Positions 450 through 60,471 of a stretch of DNA of 64,000 nucleotides are shown one piece after another. Both the position numbers and the translations under genes were made by a program. The notes under the pieces are model-generated. The model searched no databases, was not told the DNA's origin, and saw only the letters and a program-made list of their open reading frames with translations. Position 1 is the first letter of the stretch, and the number at the start of each line of letters is the position of its first letter. Source of the stretch: an uncultured Candidatus Peribacteria bacterium (GTDB lineage: Bacteria > Patescibacteriota > Gracilibacteria > UBA1369 > UM-FILTER-53-11); the NCBI GenBank assembly GCA_964358095.1, contig CAYHNW010000003.1, positions 10,306-74,305 of the forward strand, given 5' to 3'.

Positions 450-3263
450 TCATCGTACCACCGGAGCCGCTACCGGACAAATTAAACGATAGTCGCAGAA
501 ACTGCAGACGTAGCCGGGGGTAGGGGAGAAATCAGAGGAAGAGATCTCATCCGCAAGTTTCAAAATATCATCTTTGCAAACATCCAAACTTTTATCGGTA
601 CGTTCTGTTGATATTTTTTCGCCGGTTTCCAAAAGATAAAGGCTAAGTTTTGAAACCGGAATTTGTAGTACGTCACGGCACGCCAGGGCGTAAACGGAGA
701 GTTGTAGATTGTTCTTGAGGCTTTTCCCCTGACTTTCGCCCGTTTTATAGTCAATTACCTCATACGTTCCGTCCGGCAGACGATCTATGCGGTCTATTCG
801 TCCGTCAAAAATAGTATCTTTTATCTTAAGTTTAAAGGGGACTTCTATGTGTGAGGGGATTATTGGATTTTTCATCTCATTTGCATAAAATTTTGTAAGA
901 ATTTTAAATCCGTGTTTCTTTTGGATTTCTTGCATGGCACGTGTTTCATACCCGCCAATAATCCAATTTTTTTCATAAATCTCTCGTAAAACCGGCATCA
1001 AATTCTCATTGAACCTTTTTGCATCTTTTCGTAGAAGTAGATAAAAATCGCGCAAAGTATTGTGCATCGTTATTCCAAAATTCAAAACTGCCGGCATTTC
1101 ACCCGTAATTTTTGAAATGTATCTGAATTTATATTTAAGTGGACACATTTGAAATGTATCCAGTTGGCTATAACTCAATTTTGGCAATGGCGTTTTTATT
1201 TGTCCATGAGGCCTACTTTCAAAATCCAGCACAGTTTGTCGTGACGAGGATTTTGATTTTTTTACCTTATCAACCAAGATCGCCTTACCGCTTTCTAGAG
1301 CTTCCGCCACAAAGATAGATGGTTTCCATTGTTTTTTGCCGTCGTAAAAGTCGCTATAAGACAGAATTAAATCTTGTCTTGCACGAGTGCATGCAACATA
1401 AAATAATCTGCGCTCTTCTTCTAAATGGTGATTGCCTTCAGGGAGCGGTTCCGGAATTAATTCCGGTGGGATTTCTATTGCTTCTTTTCTATCCATTCCC
1501 GGGAATTTCCACTGAGCAAGCCCTGGCACAAAGACGGCATCAAATTCTAGCCCCTTTGCGCTATGAATGGTTAGTAACTTAATTGCGGACGGATCAATGA
1601 TCTGCGAACCGATTTCACGCTGGCCAACCTGCTCTAGCATTTGTGCGTAATTCAAAAAATCCATTACTTGCTTATGTTCGTGATTCTCTTCAAATTCGCG
1701 CACTTTCTCGGAAAACATGGCTATGTCTTCTACTATTTCTTGGCTGGCATCTTTTAAATAACCACTGTCGCGCAAAAACTTTCCGATTACTTTTGAGGCT
1801 TCATTCTTGCGTGAAAATTCCAAAAGTTCAGCAAGTATTTTTTTTACATTTTCAAATGTGGAGCCTGATACAAAATCGAACAGGGAACGGTTTTCAACTC
1901 TGGCTCGTTTTGTTATTTCCAAAATGCGCTCCATTTGGATTTTCCAAAGAGGCAAAGATAAAAATCTAAACATCGCAATGTCATCCCATGGATTAGCCAA
2001 AACTTTCAAAAGGGCAAAGCAATCTTTGATGCCAGCTTTTGTAAAAAGGTTTATGGGCGAAAAATGCTGGAATGGCGCACCTACATTTCTTAGTTTTTCC
2101 AAAAAAGGAGTTGCGAGCGCGTTGGTGCGCACCAAAATTGCCGGTGAAAGCTTCTTTTTGAGTGCCGCAATCGCTGATGAAACCACAAAATCCACTTCAT
2201 CTGCCAAGTTTTCAAAATGAAATATCTGAGTTGGCTTTTCTTTGTGTTCTTTTGCGGCCACCAATTTCTTTTCGATATTTTCGGTAGATTCGAGCCGGCG
2301 CGGGTTGTTTTTTTGTATGACGCTGTATGCCATATCCAAAATTTGCTGGCTGTTGCGATAATTGTCGCTCAAAACCACGCGGCGCGCTTCTGCAAATTCT
2401 TTTTGAAAATATTGAATATTTGTGAGTGAAGCTCCGCGCCACTTGTAAATTGCCTGATCGTCATCGCCGACAACAAGTAAGTTGCGGTGGCGTCGCGCAA
2501 GCATAGTTACTATTTTGTTTTGCGCGTAATTCGTGTCTTGAAATTCGTCCACAAGAATATATTTGAAGCGTTTTTGGTACTGCGCCAGCACAGACGCTCT
2601 TTTTTCAAACAAACGAAGCGTATGAAAAAGCAATCCACCAAAATCAATGTAGTTATTTTCAATTAAGAGCTTTTCATAAATTCCATACGACTTTGCAAGT
2701 TCGAGATGCTTTTTGGCATCCTCTTGCTCTTCGTCGTTTTTGGCTGCACTTTCCATTTTTCTCGCGTGTTCCACATACTGCTCTGGTTTAATATCCTCGT
2801 CCTTTAATCGGCTAAAATATTCCTGCATAGCCATTAAAAGCCTTTGTGGATTGCCCAAACTTCTAAAATAATCGAGCTCAAAATCGGCCAAGTGACGACG
2901 CAAAAATATCCACAAGTCCACTTCTTTCAAGATTTTGTAGTCGGTAGCGAGTCCGATATTGAGTCCGCTTTCGCGCAAAACCGCATCACAGAACGCGTGG
3001 AATGTTTTTACCCATACTGCCTCCATTCCAAGCGGAAGTTCGGAATCAATGCGATCAGTCATCTCTTGCGCGGCCTTTTCCGTAAAAGTAAGCGCCAAAA
3101 TCTGATCCGGAGAAACGCCTTTTTCTAAAATCAAATATAAAATCCTGCCTACAAGAAGGTTTGTTTTACCGGTTCCGGCGCCGGAAATTACCAAAATCGA
3201 GCCACTATCGTGAGTAATTGCCTCCCTTTGTCTTTCATTATAATTTGTAAGTGAAAACGCCAT
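450..3263 (-). CDS. UvrD/PcrA-type SF1 helicase fused to a C-terminal PD-(D/E)XK (Cas4/AddB-like) nuclease
   Basis: 937 aa. Helicase motifs: ISGAGTGKTN (Walker A), VDEFQDTN (motif II), TIHSAKGLEF, YVACTRAR. The C-terminus has CPLKYKFRY, GRIDRIDRLPDGTYEVIDYKTG, QLSVYA and CSFCDYRLIC, which is the C...CxxCx5C pattern of 4Fe-4S Cas4/AddB nucleases. Confidence 0.85.
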   Translation of the reverse strand: MAFSLTNYNERQREAITHDSGSILVISGAGTGKTNLLVGRILYLILEKGVSPDQILALTFTEKAAQEMTDRIDSELPLGMEAVWVKTFHAFCDAVLRESGLNIGLATDYKILKEVDLWIFLRRHLADFELDYFRSLGNPQRLLMAMQEYFSRLKDEDIKPEQYVEHARKMESAAKNDEEQEDAKKHLELAKSYGIYEKLLIENNYIDFGGLLFHTLRLFEKRASVLAQYQKRFKYILVDEFQDTNYAQNKIVTMLARRHRNLLVVGDDDQAIYKWRGASLTNIQYFQKEFAEARRVVLSDNYRNSQQILDMAYSVIQKNNPRRLESTENIEKKLVAAKEHKEKPTQIFHFENLADEVDFVVSSAIAALKKKLSPAILVRTNALATPFLEKLRNVGAPFQHFSPINLFTKAGIKDCFALLKVLANPWDDIAMFRFLSLPLWKIQMERILEITKRARVENRSLFDFVSGSTFENVKKILAELLEFSRKNEASKVIGKFLRDSGYLKDASQEIVEDIAMFSEKVREFEENHEHKQVMDFLNYAQMLEQVGQREIGSQIIDPSAIKLLTIHSAKGLEFDAVFVPGLAQWKFPGMDRKEAIEIPPELIPEPLPEGNHHLEEERRLFYVACTRARQDLILSYSDFYDGKKQWKPSIFVAEALESGKAILVDKVKKSKSSSRQTVLDFESRPHGQIKTPLPKLSYSQLDTFQMCPLKYKFRYISKITGEMPAVLNFGITMHNTLRDFYLLLRKDAKRFNENLMPVLREIYEKNWIIGGYETRAMQEIQKKHGFKILTKFYANEMKNPIIPSHIEVPFKLKIKDTIFDGRIDRIDRLPDGTYEVIDYKTGESQGKSLKNNLQLSVYALACRDVLQIPVSKLSLYLLETGEKISTERTDKSLDVCKDDILKLADEISSSDFSPTPGYVCSFCDYRLICPVAAPVVR

Positions 3264-3275
3264 AGGGAACTCACA

Positions 3276-4316
3276 TTATCTCAAAATCTTTTCCCATTCA
3301 ATCTCCATTTTTTCTTCTTGTATTATAAATCGCTGAGATTTCATGTGATCATGCCCTACGCATGCGAACTCTTCGGCAGCTTTTGTGTCTTCAATAGGAT
3401 ATGGAGATTTGAACCATCTTCCATATTCCCCAGTTCGTTTCATTATTGTTTTTATTTCTTCAACTTTTTTAAAATACTCGTCTGGCGAATAGGGGAGATT
3501 AAGAATGTAGAACTTGCGATTTTTAAGCGCAGTACATCCAAAACAATGTTCACACTCAAAACAATACTCGCAATATTCCAGGTTTTTGCCATACCAGCAC
3601 GTACTGCAAAAGTTACAATCATGCAATCCCATTCCACTCATTATTTCATAGGAGTTAACCACCGGATCTTCACCTGCAAACGAAACATCTGTGCAATGCA
3701 TACAGCTATTCGTGTTGTTCATGTAAAGACAATTTAGGCATTTCTCAACGTCAAAACAAAACTGGCATGAATCACTATTACTAATGTAATCGCCCGTGCA
3801 AAGTCCTTCTTCGTGATTTGCACGCATATAAATGTGAGGTCTTATTTTTTTTACCTCTTTGAATAATTTTCGCAATTCGTTTGGCTGTTTTTTCTTTAAT
3901 TTTGCCACCGTCTCAAAATACGCATCCTTTGAATATAGCTTATTGTAAATAAAATATTGTTTTCTCCATAACCCTATACAGGCAAAACAGTCCCTCAAGT
4001 CTTGGCAGTCAAAACAATAGTGGCTGTTCTCACAATCTTCGCAGTCTTGCAAAAAGGATGAATCTTTGCATTTTCTGCAGTCCAAACATTCGTAACATTC
4101 TTCGCAAGAACGACAATATGAAGAGTCTACGCAGTTTTTATTGTAATAACCCCAATAGTTATAGTGCGAATTCTTTAAAAAATCACTCCCAGTGGTGCTA
4201 TAACAATCCACGCATTTATAAGTGAAATTGCAAAAAGGACTCCGCTCGTCCCTAAAGTTCATCAGGGAGAGCCGCGGTACACTTGATCTTAGTTTTTCAA
4301 ATTGCTCAAGAAACAT
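3276..4316 (-). CDS. Cysteine-lattice repeat protein, paralog A (function unknown)
   Basis: 346 aa with no signal peptide or TM. Dense CxxC runs such as CRSCEECYECLDCRKC and CEYCFECEHCFGC. Both halves end in a C-x-G/A-C-x-x-L...(F/Y)-x-I-x-N-x-x-Y-S-x-D/E-x-Y/F motif. The N-terminus FLEQFEKLRSSVPR is shared with the other paralogs. Confidence 0.8.
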   Translation of the reverse strand: MFLEQFEKLRSSVPRLSLMNFRDERSPFCNFTYKCVDCYSTTGSDFLKNSHYNYWGYYNKNCVDSSYCRSCEECYECLDCRKCKDSSFLQDCEDCENSHYCFDCQDLRDCFACIGLWRKQYFIYNKLYSKDAYFETVAKLKKKQPNELRKLFKEVKKIRPHIYMRANHEEGLCTGDYISNSDSCQFCFDVEKCLNCLYMNNTNSCMHCTDVSFAGEDPVVNSYEIMSGMGLHDCNFCSTCWYGKNLEYCEYCFECEHCFGCTALKNRKFYILNLPYSPDEYFKKVEEIKTIMKRTGEYGRWFKSPYPIEDTKAAEEFACVGHDHMKSQRFIIQEEKMEIEWEKILR

Positions 4317-4372: not shown

Positions 4373-5305
4373 TTAACCAAATACCAGCCAATCGTAATTA
4401 CCTGATTTCTTCAACCCTTCGCGGATTTCGGCAACTTCTTTGTGCCAGGCATCTTTCGTATACTGCTTATTTAAAATCAAATATTCACGTCTATTTGTAA
4501 ACGCGCACCCAAAGAGATATTTACTATTGAAACAACCTTCGCAAAACTCGCTGTCGTGAAGATGTTCACAATAATGGCAAAAATTACTGTTCCAGCCGTC
4601 GCCAACTTGGATGCATTCATAGCAACTGTGTAAATCTACGCTAAAGTAGCAATCAAACACGTCTTCGCATTTATCACCGTATGCCGTGTAAATATCGTGA
4701 AGCCATGCGCCACTGTGAATGTTTTTCGCATTAAAACAGCCGAAACAGTCGCGTGAATTTTGAATGTTGTCACCAAAACAATTCTCGGTTTGATATTGGC
4801 GTGAAGCTACGTGCGGATGACTTTTTCTTAGTCGCTCAACTTCCGTATCAATCTCTGCACGCGGCATTTTCTTTAAATCGGAAATTTTTTCGGCATACTC
4901 TTCCTGTGAGTATCTCTTATTAAAAATAAAATTCTGGCTTCTGCGTAGCCCAACGCACCCAAAACAATTCTGGCAATTTAGGCAGTCGTAGCAGTGGTTG
5001 CAATCCGAACAATTGCGCAGAAATTGAGAAAAATCGCAGTTGTAGCTCCCATAGACTTCGATACCTTCATAACAAAGTTCGCTATTCCAAATATCTTCGC
5101 AGTCGCAGCAAAATCTGCTGCTATTAACGGTGCCGCTATACATACAGCCCTCAGAAGTATCCATATCAAAACAAAGGTAACAATTTTTAGAAAGATACAT
5201 TGCGTTACCATAGGGGCAATTTTGATTCTGGTAGCCGCTCACCGAAATACGCGGCGTCTTGAAGCACAACTGCTTAAACCCGGCTATAAATTCTTCTGCA
5301 GTCAT
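4373..5305 (-). CDS. Cysteine-lattice repeat protein, paralog B (function unknown)
   Basis: 310 aa. Contains NCSDCNHCYDCLNCQNCFGCVGLRRSQNFIFNKRYSQEEY and, in the second half, CEGCFNSKYLFGCAFTNRREYLILNKQYTKDAW. Same two-module layout as 3276-4316, 5735-6667 and 59527-60471. Confidence 0.8.
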   Translation of the reverse strand: MTAEEFIAGFKQLCFKTPRISVSGYQNQNCPYGNAMYLSKNCYLCFDMDTSEGCMYSGTVNSSRFCCDCEDIWNSELCYEGIEVYGSYNCDFSQFLRNCSDCNHCYDCLNCQNCFGCVGLRRSQNFIFNKRYSQEEYAEKISDLKKMPRAEIDTEVERLRKSHPHVASRQYQTENCFGDNIQNSRDCFGCFNAKNIHSGAWLHDIYTAYGDKCEDVFDCYFSVDLHSCYECIQVGDGWNSNFCHYCEHLHDSEFCEGCFNSKYLFGCAFTNRREYLILNKQYTKDAWHKEVAEIREGLKKSGNYDWLVFG

Positions 5306-5401: not shown

Positions 5402-5686
5402 CTAACCGATGTTCTGCCAGAAACACTCTTGGCAATAGACGATGTACTTGGAATCAGGCGCGTAAGTGGAAATAATATCCTTTTGGCATTTATCGCACTT
5501 TCTCTTATAAAGTTTGCGTTCGTTGCGAAGCGAAAGTCTGCGTTTTTGACGGCACTCCGGACAATTTGCAGGCCATGGCAAATCTTTCTTCTTATAAAAC
5601 TCTTGTTCCTGCGGAATTATTAAAAACTGCTTTTGGCAGGTTTCGCATTTGCGAATTTCTTCTTTTAGAGCTGCTGCGTCCGCCAT
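5402..5686 (-). CDS. Small zinc-ribbon protein (four CxxC pairs; resembles the 'probable zinc-ribbon' zf-trcl type)
   Basis: 94 aa. CETCQKQFLIIPQEQEFYKKKDLPWPANCPECRQKRR matches my recollection of the C-x2-C...EQ-x-FY...P-x-x-C-x-x-CR signature. A second ribbon follows: CDKCQK...YCQEC. Confidence 0.7.
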   Translation of the reverse strand: MADAAALKEEIRKCETCQKQFLIIPQEQEFYKKKDLPWPANCPECRQKRRLSLRNERKLYKRKCDKCQKDIISTYAPDSKYIVYCQECFWQNIG

Positions 5687-5734: not shown

Positions 5735-6667
5735 CTACTTTATTGTCTCTGCAAGAGATTTTCCGTAGACCTTAGCCTCTTTGAGATCTTTTATGATCTT
5801 TGCCGATGCCGCCAAATATTCATCTCTGGTGAACTGGCGATTCAAGATGCAGTACTCTTTATTCATCAGATAAGTGCAACCCAGGCAACTGCGGCAATTA
5901 TAACAATTAAGGCAGTATGTAGAGTCGCTGCAACCTATGCAGTTCTCCACAAAGCTACAATTATTGCAGGAATTGACATTGTGACATTCATAACAGAGTT
6001 CAATACCGGAACAGAAATCACAATCTACATTATCGGCAGAACTGGTCTGCTGATCGTTGACGTGTGAAACGTATGCAGAATCTGAAACATTGCGCACGCT
6101 AAAACATTGGAAACAATTTTTGCTGAAATATATGTAGTCGCCAAAACAGTGTTCACCGCCTTTTAGCATACGAGCATAGAGCCGTGGATGTTTATTGAAT
6201 TGAGGTGTCAAGACCTCAATAATCTTTTTTGGAGTATTCTTTTTAAATTCAGCGACGCGTTTTCTATATACGTCTTCAGGATAACTCTTGTTAAAGATGC
6301 AGAATTTTTGTTGTCGCAACCCAAATGATCCAAAGCAATCTTTGCAATTCAAACAGTCCGTGCAGAAATCGCAATTTGAACAGTTGTGGCAATCTTGAAG
6401 ATGCGAACAGCCGTAAAGTCCGCTGCAATCCACGCATTGATAGCTGAGTTCGCATGAGCCAAGATGAGCGCAGTCCACGCAATCTCTGCACTTGGTCAAA
6501 TACTCCGAGTAATAGCAATCTTCACATTCGGTTATGAAATAGCTTAGATAAATGTTTTTTGAAAGATAGACGTAATCTGAAAACTCGCAATTTTCTGCGG
6601 TACGACTGCTGGTTGCGTTCCTTGGTTTTGAAACAAGAAGATTTTTAAATTCTTTGTAAAAGTCCAT
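5735..6667 (-). CDS. Cysteine-lattice repeat protein, paralog C (function unknown)
   Basis: 310 aa, about 35 Cys by my count. Contains CHNCSNCDFCTDCLNCKDCFGSFGLRQQKFCIFNKSYPEDVY and CLNCYNCRSCLGCTYLMNKEYCILNRQFTRDEY. It starts 11 nt after the ATPase gene stop. Confidence 0.8.
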   Translation of the reverse strand: MDFYKEFKNLLVSKPRNATSSRTAENCEFSDYVYLSKNIYLSYFITECEDCYYSEYLTKCRDCVDCAHLGSCELSYQCVDCSGLYGCSHLQDCHNCSNCDFCTDCLNCKDCFGSFGLRQQKFCIFNKSYPEDVYRKRVAEFKKNTPKKIIEVLTPQFNKHPRLYARMLKGGEHCFGDYIYFSKNCFQCFSVRNVSDSAYVSHVNDQQTSSADNVDCDFCSGIELCYECHNVNSCNNCSFVENCIGCSDSTYCLNCYNCRSCLGCTYLMNKEYCILNRQFTRDEYLAASAKIIKDLKEAKVYGKSLAETIK

Positions 6668-6678
6668 TTAGCTATAAG

Positions 6679-8925
6679 CTAGATAAGAGGTTCTGCAAAT
6701 TTCTGCTCAATTGCTCCGGCTGAAGCAGCATCTGGTTCGGACGCGCTTTCGTCCCATTTTTTGAGGTCATTCTCAACCTGAGACCTAGGATTGGCGTATT
6801 TTTCGCGAGATTGGCGGATAATTTCAGTGCTGTAATGATCTTTTGGAGCAGAAACATTTAATGTGCGTCCAGAAAAGGCATCGCGCAGTTCTCCGTCAAC
6901 TGACATTTTTACGTAAAATTCGCGAACGCCGAGGTTGATGATATCGCGGACTTTAAATACCGGCGTATATTCATTTTCCAAGATCGCGGCATCTTCGGCA
7001 CCGACGCGGAAATTTATAATGGTACCGACGTTGCCGAAAGCCGTTGTGCGTATCATATGGGACAATTGACCCATATATTGGTGAGCCATTGTAAGGTTCA
7101 GGTGGTATTTGCGAGCCTCGGAAAGAATTTCTGCAAATGTGTCGGTGGCAAAATATTGGAACTCATCACAATAGAGATAAAAATCGCGGCGATTTTCCTC
7201 TGGAATACCAGTTCTGGCCATTGCTGCTTGCTGAATTTTTGTAACCACCATTGAGCCGATGAGTGCGGCGTTTTCTTCGCCCAAATTACCTTTTGAAATT
7301 CTCATCAATAAAATTTTGCCGCTATCCATTATATCTTGAATATCTATTTTATTGGTCGGTTGGCCAACTATGTTTCGGATTAGAGAAGTAGAAACGAACT
7401 GGCCGACCTTGTTCAAAATTGGCATTATCGCTTCATTATCAAATTTTTCACTCCATGCCGCGAACTCGTTTACCCAGAAATTTTTAATAACTGAATCTTG
7501 TATGCGTGACACAATTTTCTGGCGATAATTCTTATCGGAAAGCATTTTTAAAATGGAAAGCACCGTCGTATTTGGAGAATCCAAAAGAGCGAGGGTGGTG
7601 TATCTCAAAACGTGTTCAAGACGATTGGTCCAGTTGTTGCCAAAAAGTTTCTTAAAAATATCAATAAAGCCGATTGTAACGCGAACTCGCAGTTCCGGAG
7701 GCACGTGCTCGAGCGGATTAAAAGCAACTGGAAATTCAAAATCTGCAGGATTGAAATAAACTACGTCATTTATGCGGTTTTCCGGAATGTATTTCAAAAT
7801 CGAATCCACAAGATCTCCGTGAGGATCCAGAACTCCGACACCATGACCCGCCATAATGTCTTCCTTTATGAGCAATTCCAGCATTTTTGATTTACCGGTA
7901 CCGCTTTTGCCAACAACATAAAGATGGCGGCGGCGGTCTTCGCGCTTGAGTCCAAATTTAAAATTCTGATTATGAAAATTTGTGACGCCAAATATTGAAA
8001 CTTTATCAAGAGATACGTTGCCTTCACGCGGCAAATCACGCGGCGGTTCGGCTTTTTTTGCCAAAACGTGCACGATGTGGGGTACATCGTCCGGGTGGGG
8101 GAAGTGATAAATACTAGCCAATTCTATCGAGCTCAAATGAAAAGCATCTGGTGGCATCGTGCGTTCTTGGTAACTTTTCAACAAGCTCGTCATGCGCAGC
8201 ATTTTTTTTGCTTTAAATCCATTCAGGTCAATTGTATTAAACTGCATAAAGGCCTTAATGAGAACGTGCAGTTTTTGCTGTGCTTTTTCTTTTGTTTTTG
8301 CCACATACACAATTCTCACCGCAGTTTTATATGTGTGATGTTCGGCCTTGTGCTTATATGCTTCGCGCTCCATTTCGCGCATACTTTTGGCAGACTTGAG
8401 CTTGAAATAGTTTTTAATGCGGAAATAAAGTTTCACGCTATTTAACTTCATCTTCCAGCTGCGCCAGAAATTTAATCTCCAATCGTCGGCGGTTGGTTCC
8501 ACAAAGGTTTGGATCCAAATCTGCTCGTCTTCTTCAGCCTTTGTCATGATAGAGAAAATGCCAGATAGCGAGTCGCCTTCGAATTCCTTAAAAGTTTTTA
8601 TCGGAATGATGTCGGATCTCAAAAGTTTTAATTCAGTTCCCGCAAACCCGCGTTCAAGCACATCGGGCTTAACGTAATCCGTTACTTCTTCAATTTCACA
8701 GAATGGATACTGTGCGTAAATTTGTCCTTCTATGAGTTCTTTAAGTCTTCGTTCGATGCACGCAAAGAAGTAAATATGCTGGTTATATGATGTCATTTCG
8801 AAGGTGAACGCATGATGATGCAGAATTTCGTGTATGTTCACGAGAAACTGCTCAAAAGACAGCACCCTCTTTTCGATTTCTTGAGGGATCCTGATTAGAA
8901 GCAAAGCTTTATCTTTAGGCATCAT
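6679..8925 (-). CDS. VirD4/TraD/TraG-like (FtsK-HerA superfamily) P-loop ATPase, soluble form
   Basis: 748 aa. Walker A is VVGKSGTGKSKM and Walker B is FYLYCDEFQYF, followed by EARKYHLNLTMAHQY (coupling-protein-like C-terminal block). It shares ELASIYHFP and the overall layout with the paralog at 23805-26285 but lacks that protein's N-terminal TM helix. Confidence 0.75.
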   Translation of the reverse strand: MMPKDKALLLIRIPQEIEKRVLSFEQFLVNIHEILHHHAFTFEMTSYNQHIYFFACIERRLKELIEGQIYAQYPFCEIEEVTDYVKPDVLERGFAGTELKLLRSDIIPIKTFKEFEGDSLSGIFSIMTKAEEDEQIWIQTFVEPTADDWRLNFWRSWKMKLNSVKLYFRIKNYFKLKSAKSMREMEREAYKHKAEHHTYKTAVRIVYVAKTKEKAQQKLHVLIKAFMQFNTIDLNGFKAKKMLRMTSLLKSYQERTMPPDAFHLSSIELASIYHFPHPDDVPHIVHVLAKKAEPPRDLPREGNVSLDKVSIFGVTNFHNQNFKFGLKREDRRRHLYVVGKSGTGKSKMLELLIKEDIMAGHGVGVLDPHGDLVDSILKYIPENRINDVVYFNPADFEFPVAFNPLEHVPPELRVRVTIGFIDIFKKLFGNNWTNRLEHVLRYTTLALLDSPNTTVLSILKMLSDKNYRQKIVSRIQDSVIKNFWVNEFAAWSEKFDNEAIMPILNKVGQFVSTSLIRNIVGQPTNKIDIQDIMDSGKILLMRISKGNLGEENAALIGSMVVTKIQQAAMARTGIPEENRRDFYLYCDEFQYFATDTFAEILSEARKYHLNLTMAHQYMGQLSHMIRTTAFGNVGTIINFRVGAEDAAILENEYTPVFKVRDIINLGVREFYVKMSVDGELRDAFSGRTLNVSAPKDHYSTEIIRQSREKYANPRSQVENDLKKWDESASEPDAASAGAIEQKFAEPLI

Positions 8926-13068: not shown

Positions 13069-14757
13069 TTATTGTGGTTCTACGATAGTTGAAAGCATGT
13101 CTTTTGCGGCTGCTGCAGAGACCAATCCGGAGTTAACCGCTAGACAATATTTGTCCCTGGCTTGAACACATACGTCGTATTCTTCAAATACTCCGGCGCG
13201 CGTTACACTGCCGCTCGTTGCTGGTCTGCCACCAACTTCTCCATCAGAAACCATGCTTGGTGCGAGCTTGTCTACTGCAGGATTTTTCAACAAAGAGACT
13301 GTGCATACCGTATCCGCTTTAATTGGCGCTCCGCCAAAACAATACGCACCGCCTTCAAACGCCCAATAATAATTAGACGGATATTGGATTGAAATCCCAA
13401 AGGTTCGGGATTCAAGTAAACGCATGCCTTTTTTAACTGTAACGGCGAGTCCGCCGGTAGAAACCGGAACTACCGCTTTTTCGCTGGATTTGGCACTGTC
13501 TGTTCCGTCTGCGAGTTCCCAATCGCTCACTGAGCCCGGTTTAAAATATGCGACGCGAACCATGCTTGAAGGGGATAATTTGTCCGGAATATTTAATAAA
13601 ATTTTGCGTGAGTCTTTGCTGTCTCTATAAATCACATAAACTGCGTTGTATTCTTCCGGTTTGCCTTCCGGATACGCAAATTCCACAGTACTAACTGACC
13701 ACGAGCCGTTTGCCGCAGCCTCTGGAGCAAGCGTTGATATATTTTGTTTTATATAATCAATCAGTGTTTGCTTGATGCCTTGATTTGCAACGAGCGCATC
13801 TTGTTCTGCTTTTTTAGCCGCTGCGGCCGCCTCAGCTTCTTTGCGCGCCGCAAGTTCTTTTTCGGCCAAATCAGAGAGAGAAGCGTCTGGCAATTTTACC
13901 TCTGGTTTTATTTCTAGTTTCTCTGGCGTTGTTGTGATGCCGGCGGTTGCCTGTCCCGCCATAAACGGCACAAATTCAAAACTCGCGACTATGTTGAAAA
14001 AAGCGTTTCTGTACAAATCTTTGTCAGCATCGTTCACGGTTGTATGTGTAAAACGGTACATAAAAGTATCTCGCGGAACATAAAACTCCACTTTATCTCC
14101 GCTGCCAAAAGTCTTCTTGACTCCCTCAAGCTGCGCAACTCCGACTATGCTTTGTTGGTAGGTGATGTTAGTTTCGAGCGGATCTTTTGATCTGTATTGA
14201 TCGTCCAGGTTGAGCCACAGTCTCGCGGTTTGCTTGTGATTGTTTTCGCTGCGTTCAACTATAATATTATCCACGCTCGGCAATTCACTCTCGGTAACAT
14301 CGTATGGAGTTATTATTATTTTCTGCTGGCCGGCAATATTTTTTTCATTTTTCAAAATCCAAACTGATGGATATTGGAATTTTATTCCCATTTCCGTATC
14401 CATGTAGCTTTGCTTGGTTTCTGTCTCGTGCCCAAGAGAGGTTGAGTTATCAACCATAAAAACCGTGCGACCGTCATTCCACTTGCCTTCAACTTCAATT
14501 CTGCGCTTTGTGTAGCGCTTTAAATTTACGCTCACGGAATCCAGAAAAACCTTTTCTCCAAGATCGGTTACCAAAACAAATTGCGATGGTGCTGTTAGCA
14601 GTCCTTGTTCCGTTGGTGTGCTAACGAGGCCAACTTTCTTTTCTAACTGGACTTCCACCGGTGGTGCAACCGGGACTTCTTCTTTTTGCCAAAAGAACGT
14701 GCAGCCAGAGGAGGCAATTACCAAAACTATTACCAGTGAAAAAAGAATTTTTCTCAT
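13069..14757 (-). CDS. Secreted or membrane-anchored hypothetical protein (possible lipoprotein)
   Basis: 562 aa. N-terminus MRKILFSLVIVLVIASSGC is a signal-like helix followed by Cys. There is an Ala/Glu-rich linker (KEAEAAAAAKKAEQ). I recognise no catalytic motif. Confidence 0.6.
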   Translation of the reverse strand: MRKILFSLVIVLVIASSGCTFFWQKEEVPVAPPVEVQLEKKVGLVSTPTEQGLLTAPSQFVLVTDLGEKVFLDSVSVNLKRYTKRRIEVEGKWNDGRTVFMVDNSTSLGHETETKQSYMDTEMGIKFQYPSVWILKNEKNIAGQQKIIITPYDVTESELPSVDNIIVERSENNHKQTARLWLNLDDQYRSKDPLETNITYQQSIVGVAQLEGVKKTFGSGDKVEFYVPRDTFMYRFTHTTVNDADKDLYRNAFFNIVASFEFVPFMAGQATAGITTTPEKLEIKPEVKLPDASLSDLAEKELAARKEAEAAAAAKKAEQDALVANQGIKQTLIDYIKQNISTLAPEAAANGSWSVSTVEFAYPEGKPEEYNAVYVIYRDSKDSRKILLNIPDKLSPSSMVRVAYFKPGSVSDWELADGTDSAKSSEKAVVPVSTGGLAVTVKKGMRLLESRTFGISIQYPSNYYWAFEGGAYCFGGAPIKADTVCTVSLLKNPAVDKLAPSMVSDGEVGGRPATSGSVTRAGVFEEYDVCVQARDKYCLAVNSGLVSAAAAKDMLSTIVEPQ

Positions 14758-23804: not shown

Positions 23805-26285
23805 TTATATGTCTGACCCTATTCTCCTGAGAATTTCCCTACTCACATATTCACGCGGTCTGCCATACTTTAACCTGGAAAGCTGTTTAAGAGCCTCACC
23901 CAGGTTCTTGTCGCCACTATCTGTATATGGATTAACCGGTGTAATGCTAAAAGGTCGGCTTGGCTGAGTATCTATGGAAAGTTTCATGCAGGCCTTATAC
24001 TTGTCCAAATTGACCAAATCCTGATCTGAGAATACAGGTGCCATTTCTTTGCCCATGTACTCCGAATCTTGAGCACCAATCTTGTAGCACATAATAGAAC
24101 CTACGTTACCGAATACAGCATCTTTCAAACTTACTTTTTTGGCACCTTTCTTTGCTTCGCCACCTTCTAGCTGAGCGAGGTATTGATGCGCCATGTTTAA
24201 GCCCAGGCGATATTTTCTAGCTTCGGACAATATCACTTCAATACTTTCAGTCACATAGTTTTGGAATTCATCAATGTATAGGAAAAAGTCACGGCGTTCG
24301 CTCTTTTCCACCTTTTGCCTCTTGAGTGCCGCCATTTGCAACTTGCTAACGGCTATAAGACCAAGCAGTTTGCTGTTGATTTCACCGGTTTCACCTTTTG
24401 CAAGATTCATAAGCAATATTTTTCCTTCCTGCATGACTTTGAAGAAATCAAAGGCAGATTTTGCTTGGCCAATGATGTTGCGCATCATGCCATTTGTGAC
24501 GAATGCGCCGAATTTTGCGGCAAAGTACGGAATCATTTCTTGCTTTTCTCTGGCGCCAGTTTTTGCCATTTGGTGCATCCAGAATGACTTAACAATCGGA
24601 TTTTTTACCTTTGTAACTTTGTATTTTTGAAAATCATCATCGGTAAAAAGACGCACTATGTCGGTAAGAGCCCCACCTTCCGGATCATCCATCAAAGTTA
24701 GACAGCCGTTGCGGAAATAGTCTTGAATGCGTGGACCAAATATTTCTTCATCAAAAAGCTTGATCATGATGTTCATGGCATCGAGCGCAACCATGTCTTT
24801 TTCTTCTTCGGTATTTGCTTCAAGCAAATTTAACCCCATCGGGCGTTCTAGATCGGCCGGATTGAAATAGATCACGTCATCAGCTCTTTCACGCGGGATA
24901 AATGGAAGAATATCTTCTATAAGAGAACCGTGCGGATCAATTACACAGAGGCCGTCGCCGTTCTTTAAATCCTGGCGAATCATAACCTGCAAAATAGAAG
25001 ACTTACCAGTACCGGTTTGACCAATGACATAGAAATGACGAAAACGATCTTCACGCTTCATGCGAATTTCTCTTGATTGACCGCGATATAAATTGTGCCC
25101 AAGAAGTATGCCTTCGTCTGGGATATTCGCCGGCGCCGGTGCAATTTTAAAGTTCTGCCATGCAATCGTAGACTGGCGATTGAAACGAATGTTTGGAAAG
25201 TGGAAAACGCTCGCAAGTTCATCGGAAGACAAAATCATAGGCATTTGGGTGAGCCTCATGAGCCATGTGCGCTTGAGCGTTCTCAAAATAAAATTATTAA
25301 CCAGCCCTTTCGTCGAATGATATTTGGTTTTTTCGAGAGAGTTGTTGTCAGTTGTACCATACTGTGCAAATGCACTGCGCACGTTTGCCAATTGTTGCGC
25401 AGCCTGATAGTAAGTCGGCGCAGCCGTTATGACTCTAATGACCGCCTCATATCCCTTCTTGGTATTCTTTTCTTCTATTGCTTTTACCTGATCATCGGTT
25501 AGCGGCGTCGTGCGAGTTGCGCCTTTATTGGTGTCCATGTTTTGTTTTAAATCTTCCGCGCCACGGACGCCTATGCCAAAAATCGTGCCGATCCATGAAA
25601 CTGGATTCCACCAATGAAATTTACTTGCGTGCGTAAAAATTTCTTCTGCTCTTTTGCGTCCTTTATCCTGCCAGCCATCAGCTTCCGGCCTTATAATAAT
25701 CTGAATCGCTCCGCCCTCATCAGGACCCAATTTTGAAAGTACATTACAGACAGTATTGATGGGATCTTGGCTCATGCGCTGAAAAGTACGCAGCGGAAAA
25801 AATGGCTCCTTTGCCATTTTCATATAAGAGGCCGCTACCTTGGAATTTGGTTTAAAAACATTATAATCCTGGACTTGTTCAATATAAGCGTCAGGATAAA
25901 AACCGGTAATTTGTTTTTCAAAAAGGGATACAAGTGACCTTGGCAAAACAATGTACTGATAAATTTGGTTATTGAAAACCGCATATTCCAGCGAGAAAAA
26001 ATCTTGGCCGATTATTTTATGTTTTATATCGGACTCATAAGTGGCATGAATTGCCTCATAAAACTGACCCATTATGGCAACAACCTCCTTAAAATCTTTT
26101 TCGCCGGCATATTGACCGCCTTCTTTTTCACGATCATCTTTTGATTCCTTCTTAGGGATAAGGACTTTTAAGAAGACCATGTTAAGAGACTTCGCCATAT
26201 TTGCGCGGACGCGAATATACCACCAGATCAGGAGCAAAAGGATTACGAACCCGACTACGCTTAGAAGACTGTATAAGAAAATCAT
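23805..26285 (-). CDS. VirD4/TraD/TraG-like P-loop ATPase, membrane-anchored paralog
   Basis: 826 aa. N-terminal TM helix MIFLYSLLSVVGFVILLLLIWWYI. Walker A is VIGQTGTGKSSI and Walker B is FFLYIDEFQNY, followed by EARKYRLGLNMAHQY. ELASVFHFP is shared with 6679-8925. Confidence 0.75.
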   Translation of the reverse strand: MIFLYSLLSVVGFVILLLLIWWYIRVRANMAKSLNMVFLKVLIPKKESKDDREKEGGQYAGEKDFKEVVAIMGQFYEAIHATYESDIKHKIIGQDFFSLEYAVFNNQIYQYIVLPRSLVSLFEKQITGFYPDAYIEQVQDYNVFKPNSKVAASYMKMAKEPFFPLRTFQRMSQDPINTVCNVLSKLGPDEGGAIQIIIRPEADGWQDKGRKRAEEIFTHASKFHWWNPVSWIGTIFGIGVRGAEDLKQNMDTNKGATRTTPLTDDQVKAIEEKNTKKGYEAVIRVITAAPTYYQAAQQLANVRSAFAQYGTTDNNSLEKTKYHSTKGLVNNFILRTLKRTWLMRLTQMPMILSSDELASVFHFPNIRFNRQSTIAWQNFKIAPAPANIPDEGILLGHNLYRGQSREIRMKREDRFRHFYVIGQTGTGKSSILQVMIRQDLKNGDGLCVIDPHGSLIEDILPFIPRERADDVIYFNPADLERPMGLNLLEANTEEEKDMVALDAMNIMIKLFDEEIFGPRIQDYFRNGCLTLMDDPEGGALTDIVRLFTDDDFQKYKVTKVKNPIVKSFWMHQMAKTGAREKQEMIPYFAAKFGAFVTNGMMRNIIGQAKSAFDFFKVMQEGKILLMNLAKGETGEINSKLLGLIAVSKLQMAALKRQKVEKSERRDFFLYIDEFQNYVTESIEVILSEARKYRLGLNMAHQYLAQLEGGEAKKGAKKVSLKDAVFGNVGSIMCYKIGAQDSEYMGKEMAPVFSDQDLVNLDKYKACMKLSIDTQPSRPFSITPVNPYTDSGDKNLGEALKQLSRLKYGRPREYVSREILRRIGSDI

Positions 26286-57735: not shown

Positions 57736-58560
57736 TTGCACGTTGCCTTTAAAAACGCTTTGCCTTACAATTGTGTTGAAAAATTTTACACCACAATTGC
57801 CTTGAAAGACGATTTAAATCATGTTCTTACGAATTTGGGGTTTGAGCCCAAAGAAGCGGCCGTTTATTTGGCGCTGCTCGAACTTGGCAAAGGCAGCATT
57901 TTGGAAATCGCCCGCGCCTCCGGCGTCAATAGAGCATCCATTTATTACATAATTGAAGGGATGAAAAAGCGCGGTTTTGTTACGCAAATAGAAGGCAGTG
58001 GCGGCGTTCACATATATATGCCAACCGATCCGCGACTGCTTTTGGCACGTGAAAAACAGCACGTGAAAGAGCTTGAAGCCGTGGTTCCAAATTTGAAGGC
58101 GCTGGCAAACAACACGGGTCATCGCCCAAGCGTGCGGTTTTTTGAGGAACTGGAAGGCGTAAAGGCAATTTACGAAGATACGCTTTCGGCAAAAACGGAA
58201 ATATTGAATTACGCAAATTCGCAAGAAATTCGTGACCACTGGCCAAATTATGACAGCGAATATGTGGCAAAACGCGCCGAAAAAAAAATCTGGCTGCGTG
58301 GCATTGCTCCGGACGACGACGGCGGACGACGCGTGCAGGCCGAAGATCCCAAATTTCACCGCGAAATTCGCCTTATTGATCCAAAAAAACTGCCATTCAA
58401 CAACGAAATCAACATTTACGACAATAAAATCTCCATGGTTTCCTTCATCAAGCCCATTTTCGGCGTAATCATTGAAAGTAAGGCACTGGCGGAAACACAA
58501 CGCTCCATATTTGAGATGGCTTGGAGTTTTGCCGGAAAGGCTGATAAAATCGGGTCATGA
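57736..58560 (+). CDS. TrmB-family transcriptional regulator
   Basis: N-terminal winged HTH LGFEPKEAAVYLALLELGKGSILEIARASGVNRASIYYIIEGMKKRGFV. The track start is TTG 57736; the in-frame TTG at 57802 (M-KDDLNHVL) is equally plausible. The stop overlaps the purC start (ATGA). Confidence 0.7.
   Translation: MHVAFKNALPYNCVEKFYTTIALKDDLNHVLTNLGFEPKEAAVYLALLELGKGSILEIARASGVNRASIYYIIEGMKKRGFVTQIEGSGGVHIYMPTDPRLLLAREKQHVKELEAVVPNLKALANNTGHRPSVRFFEELEGVKAIYEDTLSAKTEILNYANSQEIRDHWPNYDSEYVAKRAEKKIWLRGIAPDDDGGRRVQAEDPKFHREIRLIDPKKLPFNNEINIYDNKISMVSFIKPIFGVIIESKALAETQRSIFEMAWSFAGKADKIGS
57768..57799. promoter_or_regulatory. Perfect 8-bp inverted repeat just upstream of (or within the first codons of) the TrmB-family gene; candidate operator
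   Basis: caattgtg at 57768-57775 and cacaattg at 57792-57799, separated by a 16-nt AT-rich spacer. Confidence 0.35.
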
Positions 58561-59522
58561 TTACACCGCAACAACTACAGGCACAACTGGCGTACACTTT
58601 AAAGGGCACGGATTTGCCGAGTCTTGGACACAAATATGAGGGCAAAGTGCGCGACAATTACACAAAAGCTCATCACCGCGTGATAATTGTAACGGACAGG
58701 CTTTCTGCTTTTGATCGCGTTATCACGACGATCCCTTTTAAGGGTCAAGTTCTCAACCAAATTAGTAAATTTTGGTTTGAAGAAACAAAAGATATTATAG
58801 GAAATCACGTTATTGAATTTCCTGATCCGAACGTGGTTGTTGGCCACGAGTGCAAACCGCTGATGGTAGAAATGGTTGTTCGCGGATACATCACCGGCGT
58901 TACTACGACTTCGGCTTGGTATAACTACGAAAAAGGCGTGCGAAATTTTTGCGGAAATGTTTTGCCGGAAGGGCTTAAGAAGAATCAGAAACTGGATCAT
59001 CCCATTATTACGCCATCTACAAAAGCGGAACACGGCGGGCATGACGAATCGGTGAGCGGAGAAGAAGTAATGAAGCGCGGAATTTTGACGAAGGAGCAAT
59101 GGGAGCGTTTATCTAGCGCAGTTTTGGCTTTATATAAGCGCGGAGTTGAGATTTGCGCCAAACAGGGGATTATTTTGGTTGATACAAAATATGAGCTTGG
59201 AATTGCACCAAGCGGCGAAATTATTTTGATTGATGAAATTCACACGCCGGATTCTTCTCGTTTTTGGTTTGCGAATGAATATGAAAAAAGATTGAAGGCC
59301 GGAGAAGAGCAGAAAAAAATTGATAAAGAATATTTGCGCGAGTGGTTGGCAGATCGTGGGTTCCGCGGCGAAGGCGAAATCCCGACAATTCCGGACGAAA
59401 TTCGCGTGGAGACTGGCCGCCGCTACATTGAGGCATACGAGCTAATCACCGGCCAAGAATTCCATGCGGAAGTTGGCCATGTAGAAGAAAGACTGAAGAA
59501 AAATCTGGCGAAGTATTTATAA
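58557..59522 (+). CDS. purC: SAICAR synthetase (long form)
   Basis: 321 aa. YEGKVRDNY, DRLSAFD, GYITG, LVDTKYELG and IDEIHTPDSSRFW. Confidence 0.85.
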   Translation: MITPQQLQAQLAYTLKGTDLPSLGHKYEGKVRDNYTKAHHRVIIVTDRLSAFDRVITTIPFKGQVLNQISKFWFEETKDIIGNHVIEFPDPNVVVGHECKPLMVEMVVRGYITGVTTTSAWYNYEKGVRNFCGNVLPEGLKKNQKLDHPIITPSTKAEHGGHDESVSGEEVMKRGILTKEQWERLSSAVLALYKRGVEICAKQGIILVDTKYELGIAPSGEIILIDEIHTPDSSRFWFANEYEKRLKAGEEQKKIDKEYLREWLADRGFRGEGEIPTIPDEIRVETGRRYIEAYELITGQEFHAEVGHVEERLKKNLAKYL

Positions 59523-59526
59523 TTCT

Positions 59527-60471
59527 ATGGATTTTTTCGCAGAACTTGAGCAATTGCAACTGAAGACGCCGCGAATTGGCTCCGTGCGTTTGCAGTCCAT
59601 CAACAGCGATTACAATCACAATATAGACGGCTGCAAAAATTGCTATTTGCTCTGCAATGCCGTAAAAAACGAAGACTGCATGTATGGCCGTGATTTTTAT
59701 GATAATGCCGACTGCGTTGACTGTGATCACGTTCGGCGCTGCACTCTGTGCTACGAATGCCTAAACTGCGCAGAATGTTGGAATTGCAAATATTTGCAGG
59801 ACTGCAAAAACTGCAGCGATTGTGATTTTGGATATTACCTAAAAGGCTGCAAAAACTGCATCGGATGCGTCGGACTAAATCAAAAAGAATTTTGCATATT
59901 TAATAAACCGTATTCAAAAGAAGATTTTTTGGACAAGAAAAAGTCTCTGACGGAGGAAGAAATTGCGCGTGAATTTGACGAACTAAAACACCATGTGCCG
60001 CGCACGCCTACACTGCAAATGGAAACAGAAAAATGCTTTGGTGATGCCCTTTTACATTGCAAAAATGCCTTTTACGCCTTTGATTGTGACGGATGCCAAG
60101 ACAGCGGATACGTTTATGAATGTAAAAGCCTCGAAGATTGCTTCGATATTTTTGTGCTGGAATATTCTGAGCTGTGCTACGAATGCAGCAGCAATTATAA
60201 ACTTCACAATTCTAATTTCTGTTTCATGTGCACAGGTTCCAGCAATTTGGAATATTGTGAGTTAGTGATGAACAGCAAAGATTGTTTTGGATGTATGGGG
60301 CTGAACCACAAAGAGTATTGCATATTGAACGTGCAATATTCTAAGGAGGATTATTTTAAGCGCGTGGCAGAAATTAAGGCACAGTTGCGTGCGAGCGGCG
60401 AATACGGAAAAAGGTTTTTGCCATCGAGTTATCCCATGCAAGATACGGTGGGCGTTTGGGAAAAATTGTAA
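59527..60471 (+). CDS. Cysteine-lattice repeat protein, paralog D
   Basis: 314 aa. The N-terminus FFAELEQLQLKTPR matches the other paralogs. Contains GCKNCIGCVGLNQKEFCIFNKPYSKEDF and SKDCFGCMGLNHKEYCILNVQYSKEDYF. It starts 4 nt after the purC stop. Confidence 0.8.
   Translation: MDFFAELEQLQLKTPRIGSVRLQSINSDYNHNIDGCKNCYLLCNAVKNEDCMYGRDFYDNADCVDCDHVRRCTLCYECLNCAECWNCKYLQDCKNCSDCDFGYYLKGCKNCIGCVGLNQKEFCIFNKPYSKEDFLDKKKSLTEEEIAREFDELKHHVPRTPTLQMETEKCFGDALLHCKNAFYAFDCDGCQDSGYVYECKSLEDCFDIFVLEYSELCYECSSNYKLHNSNFCFMCTGSSNLEYCELVMNSKDCFGCMGLNHKEYCILNVQYSKEDYFKRVAEIKAQLRASGEYGKRFLPSSYPMQDTVGVWEKL

Follow-up and report, generated by a model that had tools for sequence, protein, structure and literature searches.

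A 64,000-nucleotide (nt) stretch of DNA from an uncultured Candidatus Peribacteria bacterium, called the window below, carries four paralogous genes for Cys-rich proteins, and one of them, paralog C (5735-6667), serves as the reference here. Its product is built from two tandem modules of ~150 amino acids (aa), each made up of a helix, a predicted beta-solenoid with 12 residues per turn and a closing motif. Our best explanation as a whole, to which we give a probability of roughly 0.55, is that paralog C represents a family of cytoplasmic solenoids with a Cys core that would act as scaffolds together with zf_Tbcl zinc fingers and an ATPase. The structural part of this explanation, namely the modules, the solenoid and the Cys core, was shown at the level of structure prediction combined with coevolution. 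Positions of open reading frames (ORFs) are given as coordinates on the window, and residue numbers are those of paralog C unless a family column is meant. The four paralogs are as follows.

3276-4316, minus strand: paralog A, 346 aa, 32 Cys
4373-5305, minus strand: paralog B, 310 aa, 29 Cys
5735-6667, minus strand: paralog C, 310 aa, 35 Cys, a short family member of the 'core-only' kind
59527-60471, plus strand: paralog D, 314 aa, 33 Cys

A first-pass annotation of the window had described four paralogs sharing an N-terminal motif, two Cys-rich modules and a closing motif, with about 35 Cys in the 310 aa of paralog C. The four ORFs were found where it had placed them, the Cys count was exact, and a family profile matched every one of the paralogs with E-values of 1e-100 to 1e-125. 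Paralogs A, B and D were 30-35% identical to paralog C, which was itself 100% identical to a hypothetical protein from a Patescibacteria metagenome-assembled genome (MAG). The N-terminal motif was exact in A, B and C, and in D a Leu replaces the second Phe, so the claim that all four carry it held strictly for three of them. A Kyte-Doolittle analysis of the paralogs revealed no hydrophobic N-terminus, signal peptide or transmembrane segment (maximum 19-residue hydropathy 0.39-0.66), as expected from the earlier statement that they lack an export signal. The elements of paralog C are listed in the order in which they are translated.

6620-6661, minus strand: N-terminal helix motif F-x3-F-x2-L-x4-P-R, residues 3-16
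6317-6595, minus strand: solenoid 1, residues 25-117, about eight 12-residue coils, net charge -11
6266-6337, minus strand: closing motif 1, residues 111-134, CFGSFGL...FCIFNKSYPEDVY
6182-6217, minus strand: helix motif, second copy, residues 151-162 (...FNKHPR), at the start of module 2
5867-6148, minus strand: solenoid 2, residues 174-267, with the same 12-residue period as solenoid 1
5816-5887, minus strand: closing motif 2, residues 261-284, CLGCTYLMNKEYCILNRQFTRDEY

When the N-terminal half of the protein was aligned with the C-terminal half by hhalign, the E-value was 1.8e-48 over 138 columns, and the aligned halves took in the second copy of the helix motif. Judged by sequence, the two halves are a true internal duplication that is larger than the one described in the first-pass annotation. 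Within the helix motif, P15 is conserved in 99% of the family. The best-conserved residues of module 1 lie in its closing motif (C111 93%, C114 85%, L117 94% and N126 99%), and in closing motif 2 the corresponding values are 97% for C264 and 100% for N276. This cap has the form C-F-G-C-x-G-L...F-C-I-F-N-K-x-Y-S-x-E-E-Y and is followed by a helix; the closing-motif pattern that had been proposed matched five of the eight module ends exactly, and the other three deviated from it at one or two positions. The coil unit of the solenoids is a hexapeptide, x-[D/N]-[C/L/I/V]-x-x-[C/S], with two hexapeptides per turn. Across the family, solenoid 2 has a lower Cys occupancy than solenoid 1, and the mean net charge is -9.4 for solenoid 1 and -7.2 for solenoid 2. 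One face of the solenoid is conserved, with an entropy of 1.1-2.1 bits, and the other is variable, reaching 3.3 bits.

The Cys residues follow a strict spacing. Paralog C contains the run CHNCSNCDFCTDCLNCKDC, as had been pointed out, and 32 of its 34 Cys-to-Cys gaps are multiples of 3; the same holds for 28 of 31 gaps in A, 22 of 28 in B and 28 of 32 in D, where about one third would be expected by chance. Runs of up to seven consecutive C-x-x-C steps occur. To describe this lattice in the family, we used a set of 423 non-identical core sequences (effective number of sequences, Meff, 383) that was assembled from searches and from six-frame translations of loci. In these members the Cys frequency was 37-47% on the lattice and 2.6% off the lattice in the same segments.

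The full-length AlphaFold2 (AF2) model of paralog C had a predicted local distance difference test (pLDDT) score of 75 and a predicted template modelling score (pTM) of 0.45, with a six-residue 'EEEE--' pattern of strands and turns. A Foldseek search with this model was uninformative (TM-score ~0.1) because the geometry between the modules was uncertain, and the module was therefore modelled alone. The 122-residue module aligned without gaps in 52 homologs, and on its own it was predicted with a pLDDT of 90.7 and a pTM of 0.83, again with a repeating 'EEEE--' pattern. Foldseek comparison of the module to the PDB returned beta-solenoid folds exclusively, among them the pentapeptide-repeat proteins MfpA, AlbG and QnrB1 and right-handed beta-helices. 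The TM-scores to solved structures were at most 0.30, thus there is no close solved relative.

Coevolution provided a view of the fold that is independent of AF2. Mean-field direct-coupling analysis (DCA) of the 423 cores gave dominant couplings at a separation of exactly 12 residues in both solenoids; this separation accounted for 32 of the 80 strongest pairs in module 1 and for 15 of the 20 strongest in module 2. The mean score at separation 12 was 0.80 in module 1 and 0.73 in module 2, compared to ~0.1 elsewhere; there was no signal at separation 18 (0.07-0.08) and a small bump at separation 24. The coupled pairs were compensatory: N-D pairs were enriched and D-D pairs depleted (21.5 observed versus 53 expected), and E-K and K-E pairs (charge) and L-G pairs (size compensation) were also found. 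This suggests that the pairs are stacked neighbours in adjacent coils and not an artefact of repeat similarity. Contacts between the modules were left unused, with indel and gap artefacts dominating there. The turn of 12 residues was deduced from the AF2 model of the module, from the i/i+12 couplings and from an autocorrelation of the profile, which had its maximum at lag 12. Together, the models indicate a fold of two tandem beta-solenoids with 12 residues per turn and an inward-facing residue at every third position, in line with the solenoid-like or ladder-like fold that had been guessed from the Cys spacing. Two related folds were considered and set aside. A left-handed hexapeptide beta-helix (PF00132) would give contacts at separation 18 and a Pfam match, neither of which was found, and the inward positions here are i/i+3 and not i/i+4. 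A quadrilateral coil of 24 residues did not agree with the weak signal at separation 24.

Since every third residue faces inward in so narrow a helix, the Cys lattice corresponds to the core of the solenoid. Its composition in the family was 37% Cys, 16% Ser, 10% Leu, 5% Val and 4% Ile. The first-pass annotation had favoured Zn or Fe-S ligation for the Cys and had pointed to a homolog alignment as the place to look for invariant Cys columns. In that alignment the lattice columns ranged from 17 to 88% Cys and none was invariant; a lack of Cys conservation among homologs, which the annotation had named as refuting its idea, was thus largely what was found, and ligation is not supported for the lattice as a whole. 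Where Cys is replaced, Ser, Leu, Val or Ile stands in its place and not His or Asp, and some lattice positions are held by a conserved Leu or Val (L117, L90 and V69). Cores contained from 12 to 40 Cys, and a run of four consecutive lattice Cys was missing in 24% of the members in module 1 and in 72% in module 2. Conservation in the family is highest at N126, N276, P15, G176, D65 and D215, that is, at Asn, Pro, Gly and Asp, together with Tyr, and not at Cys. Because the lattice Cys are freely exchanged with Ser, Leu, Val and Ile, most of them look like packing residues in the modelled core, and not like conserved metal ligands or obligate disulfide partners. Obligate disulfides were not supported by the pairing statistics either: the Cys count was even in 200 of the 423 members (p = 0.28), with no even/odd bias, and Cys co-occurrence at i/i+6, across the core, was negative (mean phi -0.105), with C-C pairs depleted (94.5 observed versus 120.6 expected) and C-L pairs enriched. 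This depletion and the random parity led us to reject disulfides in the style of TmAFP, the antifreeze protein of Tenebrio molitor. An Fe-S site of the ferredoxin type was rejected as well, as the pattern CxxCxxCxxxCP is absent from the sequences.

The closing-motif Cys behave differently from the lattice. They are well conserved, with C108 at 88% in addition to C111, C114 and C264, and C108, C111 and C114 occur together in 73% of the members, or in 49% when a Cys or His at residue 123 is added. Residue 123 is Cys, His or Tyr in 44, 22 and 19% of the members, and residue 273 in 76, 7 and 6%. The counterpart of this set in module 2 is found in 30-37% of the members. A structural metal site at the cap is therefore possible, because the cap Cys alone are conserved enough, and it is the one part of the earlier metal proposal that may still hold.

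An alternative for the lattice as a whole is that its inward CxxC rungs bind Zn, Cu(I) or Fe-S, and that the proteins serve as a metal store, a buffer or a redox device. The protein is cytoplasmic and has up to seven C-x-x-C in a row, the presence of Cys is weakly and positively correlated at separations 3, 9 and 12, which is the pattern expected of stacked CxxC knuckles, and the conserved cap Cys and the alternation of Cys and His at 123 and 273 would also fit. It conflicts with the apolar and Ser replacements on the lattice, the wide range in Cys number, the Leu and Val residues at lattice positions, the depletion of C-C pairs across the core and the low rank of Cys among the conserved residues, and we consider it unlikely. 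Nor did we find any sign that the family is an already known zinc-finger array: the lattice columns lack a zinc-finger or zinc-ribbon pattern of conserved four-ligand Cys/His sets, and no Pfam, NCBIfam or PADLOC model matched the Cys-rich core of the paralogs or of longer homologs.

Viral relatives also speak for metal binding. The x-D-C-x-x-C lattice is common to three phage proteins in which nearly every lattice position is Cys.

L088:1414-2268: Campylobacter phage CP21_166, 76 Cys in 284 aa
L089:1423-1794: Campylobacter phage CP220 gp032
L087:2483-2857: Vibrio phage 1.238 NVP1238B_69, annotated as 'insect antifreeze protein'

Cys makes up 22-27% of the Campylobacter phage proteins and 19% of the one from the Vibrio phage, nearly all Cys gaps are 3, and the pI is about 4.3. 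In the Campylobacter phages the gene lies between the portal and DNA ligase genes. The proteins belong to phrog_15341 and have no Pfam match; phrog_15341 matched paralog C with an E-value of 1.1e-8, over profile positions 46-139 of 276 in Cys-biased sequence. In a comparison by hhalign, the module profile matched the Vibrio phage protein with a probability of 96% and an E-value of 3e-9, including the EN..FG entry motif, values that composition bias may inflate. A giant-virus protein (ChoanoV1 A0A5B8IEK9 in BFVD) matched the fold with a TM-score of 0.69 and an E-value of 6e-12. Compared to the family, the viral proteins (phrog_15341 and related) have a single module with Cys at almost every lattice position, and neither the helix motif nor the closing motif nor the zinc fingers are present in them. 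The fully Cys-occupied lattice of the phage proteins leaves some probability for a role in metal binding. The denser versions in phages and a giant virus suggest that the domain is more widespread than the bacterial family. No relatives were found among the viral contigs of IMG/VR. The best phage match in a tblastn search, Flavobacterium phage FL-1 (L086:2501-2941), was discarded as an artefact of a 9-nt tandem repeat, which encodes (APV/API)n in the annotated frame and gives a period-3 pattern by chance in another frame.

The family is large. A profile search of 1.84 billion cluster representatives (50% identity) returned 4,405 sequences at E <= 1e-3 and 1,716 at E <= 1e-30. With the orthologs of paralog C as the query, a scan of one genome per species gave 507 relatives, almost all of them in MAGs of the candidate phyla radiation (CPR). 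The best 79 of the 507 loci were almost all from Peregrinibacteria/Peribacteria and Gracilibacteria, with a minority from Liptonbacteria, Levybacteria, Saccharibacteria and Minisyncoccia, and one homolog was found in a Bdellovibrionota MAG. Mapping 82 loci by tblastn revealed tandem arrays with up to 7-8 family genes within 12 kb. The four paralogs had no Pfam or NCBIfam match at E <= 1, sequence searches of the PDB with two profiles gave TmAFP (1EZG) as the sole near-match at a non-significant E-value of 3.3, and no description of the family was found in the literature. As far as these sequence comparisons go, the family is a large and unnamed one that belongs to no described family and is centred on CPR bacteria; it has no Pfam or NCBIfam model and no solved structure. 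One homolog of 731 aa (P0151) has an extra N-terminal region of ~270 aa with a weak similarity to GNAT acetyltransferases (E 1e-3, well below the cut-off).

Most family proteins have ~550 aa, with a central core of 300 aa and zf_Tbcl fused at both ends of the core. The core genes in the window are short. In the long forms (P0055, P0069 and P0076), an N-terminal pair of zf_Tbcl fingers is followed by the core, a conserved 'EWGEFFP..SPF.YNET' segment and a second zf_Tbcl at the C-terminus; the long-form C-terminal segment 'GEYG..F..S.YP..DT' is partly retained in paralog A. The PDB searches also gave a side match, a weak LIM-finger similarity of the last zinc finger. The genes in the window that recur beside the family are the following.

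5402-5686, minus strand: stand-alone treble-clef zinc-finger protein (zf_Tbcl), 94 aa, between paralogs B and C
6679-8925, minus strand: soluble P-loop ATPase of the TrwB/VirD4/HerA clade, 748 aa, ending 11 nt upstream of paralog C
57736-58560, plus strand: TrmB-family transcriptional regulator, two genes upstream of paralog D

The 94-aa protein has 8 Cys, a pI of 9.0 and a net charge of +7. It scored 30.9 bits against PF13451, above the cut-off of 24, and its second finger scored 22.6 bits against PF23477, below the cut-off of 27. Identity among homologs of the stand-alone finger protein is 60-93%, far above the conservation of the solenoid, and zf_Tbcl was present in 69 of the 82 loci in the tblastn map. 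Since zf_Tbcl is fused to the core elsewhere and is encoded by a separate gene here, it is a Rosetta-stone case for a physical interaction with the core. A literature search for zf_Tbcl and zf_Tbcl_2 (PF13451, PF23477; TIGR04272) found nothing; we treat them as partner domains that are distinct from the Cys-lattice domain.

The ATPase matched PF02534 with 23.9 bits, above the cut-off of 20.1, and TrwB in the PDB with an E-value of 4e-4. It has no transmembrane segment (maximum 19-residue hydropathy 1.02), and no VirB-type or other genes of a type IV secretion system (T4SS) were found among the neighbours that were examined. Thus, without a membrane anchor and without T4SS genes nearby, it is not a classical coupling protein. 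In a systematic clustering of 467 flanking ORFs from the 82 loci, full-length homologs of this ATPase were the commonest neighbour. They occurred in 21 loci, 19 of which have the ATPase gene no more than 600 nt away, and the two genes usually lie on one strand. The gene order of the window (ClpC-S1-ATPase-core-zf-core-helicase) is shared by eight of these loci, and the other 13, including loci from Liptonbacteria and Levybacteria, are arranged differently. Second came a TrmB-family regulator; it was present in 14 non-syntenic loci, with a median distance of 170 nt from the family genes and mostly in divergent orientation, which suggests regulated expression. Weaker recurrences were P-type ATPases with an HMA domain in four loci and Fe/Mn superoxide dismutases (SOD) in three, and these loci may not be independent (L033:2129-4240, L078:359-2482, L036:7917-10025; L013:8749-9330, L062:7388-7990).

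In the scaffold explanation, a module would begin with a short helix (F..L....PR), continue as a rigid solenoid of about eight coils and end in a cap and a helix, and this unit would be duplicated in tandem. In so tight a core, Cys would be the small apolar residue of choice. The solenoids would be acidic rods with a conserved and a variable face that may serve as rigid scaffolds, and they would cooperate with basic zf_Tbcl modules, which are fused to them in the ~550-aa majority form and would act in trans here, as the product of the 94-aa gene. The soluble TrwB/HerA-type ATPase, presumably a hexamer and encoded next to the family in many lineages, is the most likely functional partner, and the TrmB-type regulator beside family genes would make their expression regulated. 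We also considered a more specific arrangement, in which the solenoids are diversified acidic-rod clients, i.e. substrates or adaptors, of the TrwB/HerA-type ATPase, and in which the fingers dock interchangeable solenoids to a CPR-specific machine. We hold this to be quite unlikely as stated; the targets of such a machine might be foreign DNA or the cells of a host or prey. In a variant of it, suggested by the fully Cys-occupied phage relatives, the core could also carry a metal-thiolate ladder.

The acidic rods and the nature of the neighbours raise a further alternative, that the solenoid imitates DNA or RNA and modulates the adjacent TrwB/HerA-type ATPase or a UvrD-nuclease helicase, with the zinc fingers as docking elements. 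The best-probability matches to the module in the PDB were indeed the pentapeptide-repeat DNA mimics MfpA (probability 0.87), AlbG and QnrB1, the pattern [small]-x-[D/N]-[C/L] parallels the pentapeptide consensus A(D/N)LXX, the solenoids have net charges of about -9 and -7, and ATPases of the DNA-motor type are found as neighbours. However, the TM-scores to these proteins were 0.2-0.3 with no match to the Pfam pentapeptide model, a coil of 12 residues is much narrower than B-DNA or the 20-residue coil of pentapeptide repeats, and many family genes have no DNA enzyme next to them. A nucleic-acid mimic is thus very unlikely.

The same ATPase could instead translocate the solenoids out of the cell, where they would be oxidised to disulfide-laced rods of the Tenebrio type and act as a set of episymbiont effectors or adhesins. 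The 12-residue coil is that of TmAFP, the only near-match among PDB sequences, one phage relative bears the antifreeze annotation mentioned above, and divergent tandem arrays with a variable face resemble families of effectors or surface proteins; the adjacent ATPase is TrwB/VirD4-like and the C-terminal domain is basic. These features are outweighed by the lack of a signal peptide, of a Thr-x-Thr face, of a membrane anchor in the ATPase and of other T4SS genes nearby. The parity of the Cys is random, pairs at i/i+6, the disulfide geometry of TmAFP, are depleted, and TmAFP was not among the top 50 fold matches, which makes an exported rod highly improbable.

Several observations weigh against the scaffold explanation. 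The pTM of the full-length model is low, and with TM-scores of at most 0.30 the module has no experimental template. DCA of repeat proteins can inflate couplings at the repeat period, which the compensatory pairs argue against and do not exclude. The alternation of Cys and His at residues 123 and 273 hints at metal or redox biology, as do the HMA-domain P-type ATPases and SODs among the neighbours, and the almost 100% Cys lattice of the phage relatives is hard to explain by packing alone. The functional part is drawn solely from gene fusion and neighbourhood, and paralog D and many homologs are without such recurrent neighbours.

Other genes in the window were noted in passing. Paralog D follows the TrmB-family regulator and purC (SAICAR synthetase) head to tail on the plus strand (57736-60471), the regulator gene and purC overlapping by 4 nt and purC and paralog D being separated by 4 nt; the arrangement resembles a single operon in which a purine gene is combined with a gene for a Cys solenoid. 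At 450-3263 on the minus strand lies a UvrD-type helicase with a fused C-terminal PD-(D/E)XK nuclease and a Cys cluster, CSFCDYRLIC, at its extreme end. It is syntenic with family genes in orthologous loci and gave strong PADLOC scores for GajB, but the GajB models are generic UvrD models. A second ATPase of the TrwB/VirD4 type (23805-26285, minus strand, 826 aa) has an N-terminal transmembrane helix (hydropathy 2.89) and, unlike the ATPase beside paralog C, adjoins no family gene. Two minus-strand ORFs, 13069-14757 (562 aa) and 17929-18597 (222 aa), had no Pfam match at E <= 1e-3; nearby genes at 18607-20973 and 22037-23710 encode, respectively, an M23 peptidase with SLH domains and a protein with four peptidoglycan-binding domains.

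CPR genomes are roughly 1 Mb in size, and in some of them at least seven tandem copies of a ~1.6-kb gene of this family stand in one array, which is a large investment. If the structural reading is true, this would be, to our knowledge, the first known period-3 Cys lattice that forms the core of a cytoplasmic 12-residue beta-helix without an obligate disulfide or metal pattern. It would be relevant to protein design and to the question of what stabilises very narrow solenoids. The fusion with zf_Tbcl, the adjacency of the ATPase in several CPR classes and the divergent TrmB regulator provide testable handles on CPR 'dark matter'.

Cys-rich proteins have been reported from this lineage before. 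The Peribacteria proteome is unusually rich in Cys (1.67%) and encodes large Cys-rich proteins (Anantharaman et al. 2016, PMC4736985), which have a mean length of ~1,655 aa and signal peptides and are predicted to lie outside the cell. The Cys-rich proteome makes it plausible that Cys is a favoured small apolar core residue in the solenoids. The two groups of proteins come from the same Cys-rich lineage, but those are large and exported, whereas the family in the window is 310-550 aa long and cytoplasmic, hence they are different sets.

Among known folds, pentapeptide-repeat proteins (MfpA, QnrB1 and AlbG; PF00805) resemble the family in being acidic beta-solenoids with a [small]-[D/N]-[hydrophobic] pattern of inward and outward residues. 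Their repeat is 5/20 residues, compared to 6/12 in the family (period 3/6/12), and their core is made of Leu, Phe and Ala, where the family has Cys and Ser. No paralog matched PF00805 in the Pfam search, and the Foldseek TM-scores stayed within the bound given for solved structures. The family is most like the narrow beta-helix of TmAFP (IPR016133/PF02420) in geometry: both have a 12-residue coil in which every third position holds a small, inward-facing residue, and both are very rich in Cys. Beyond the geometry the likeness fails at the level of the sequence model, the disulfides, secretion and the ice-binding face. None of the paralogs matched PF02420 (Pfam, E <= 1), and TmAFP was absent from the leading Foldseek matches. 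The disulfides of TmAFP join i and i+6, the very separation at which Cys are anti-correlated in the family. TmAFP is secreted and has a Thr-x-Thr (TCT) ice-binding face, whereas the family is cytoplasmic, has no signal peptide and carries D/N and variable residues, not Thr, beside the strand Cys. In contrast to TmAFP, the family is built from two modules with helix and cap elements and is fused to zinc fingers.

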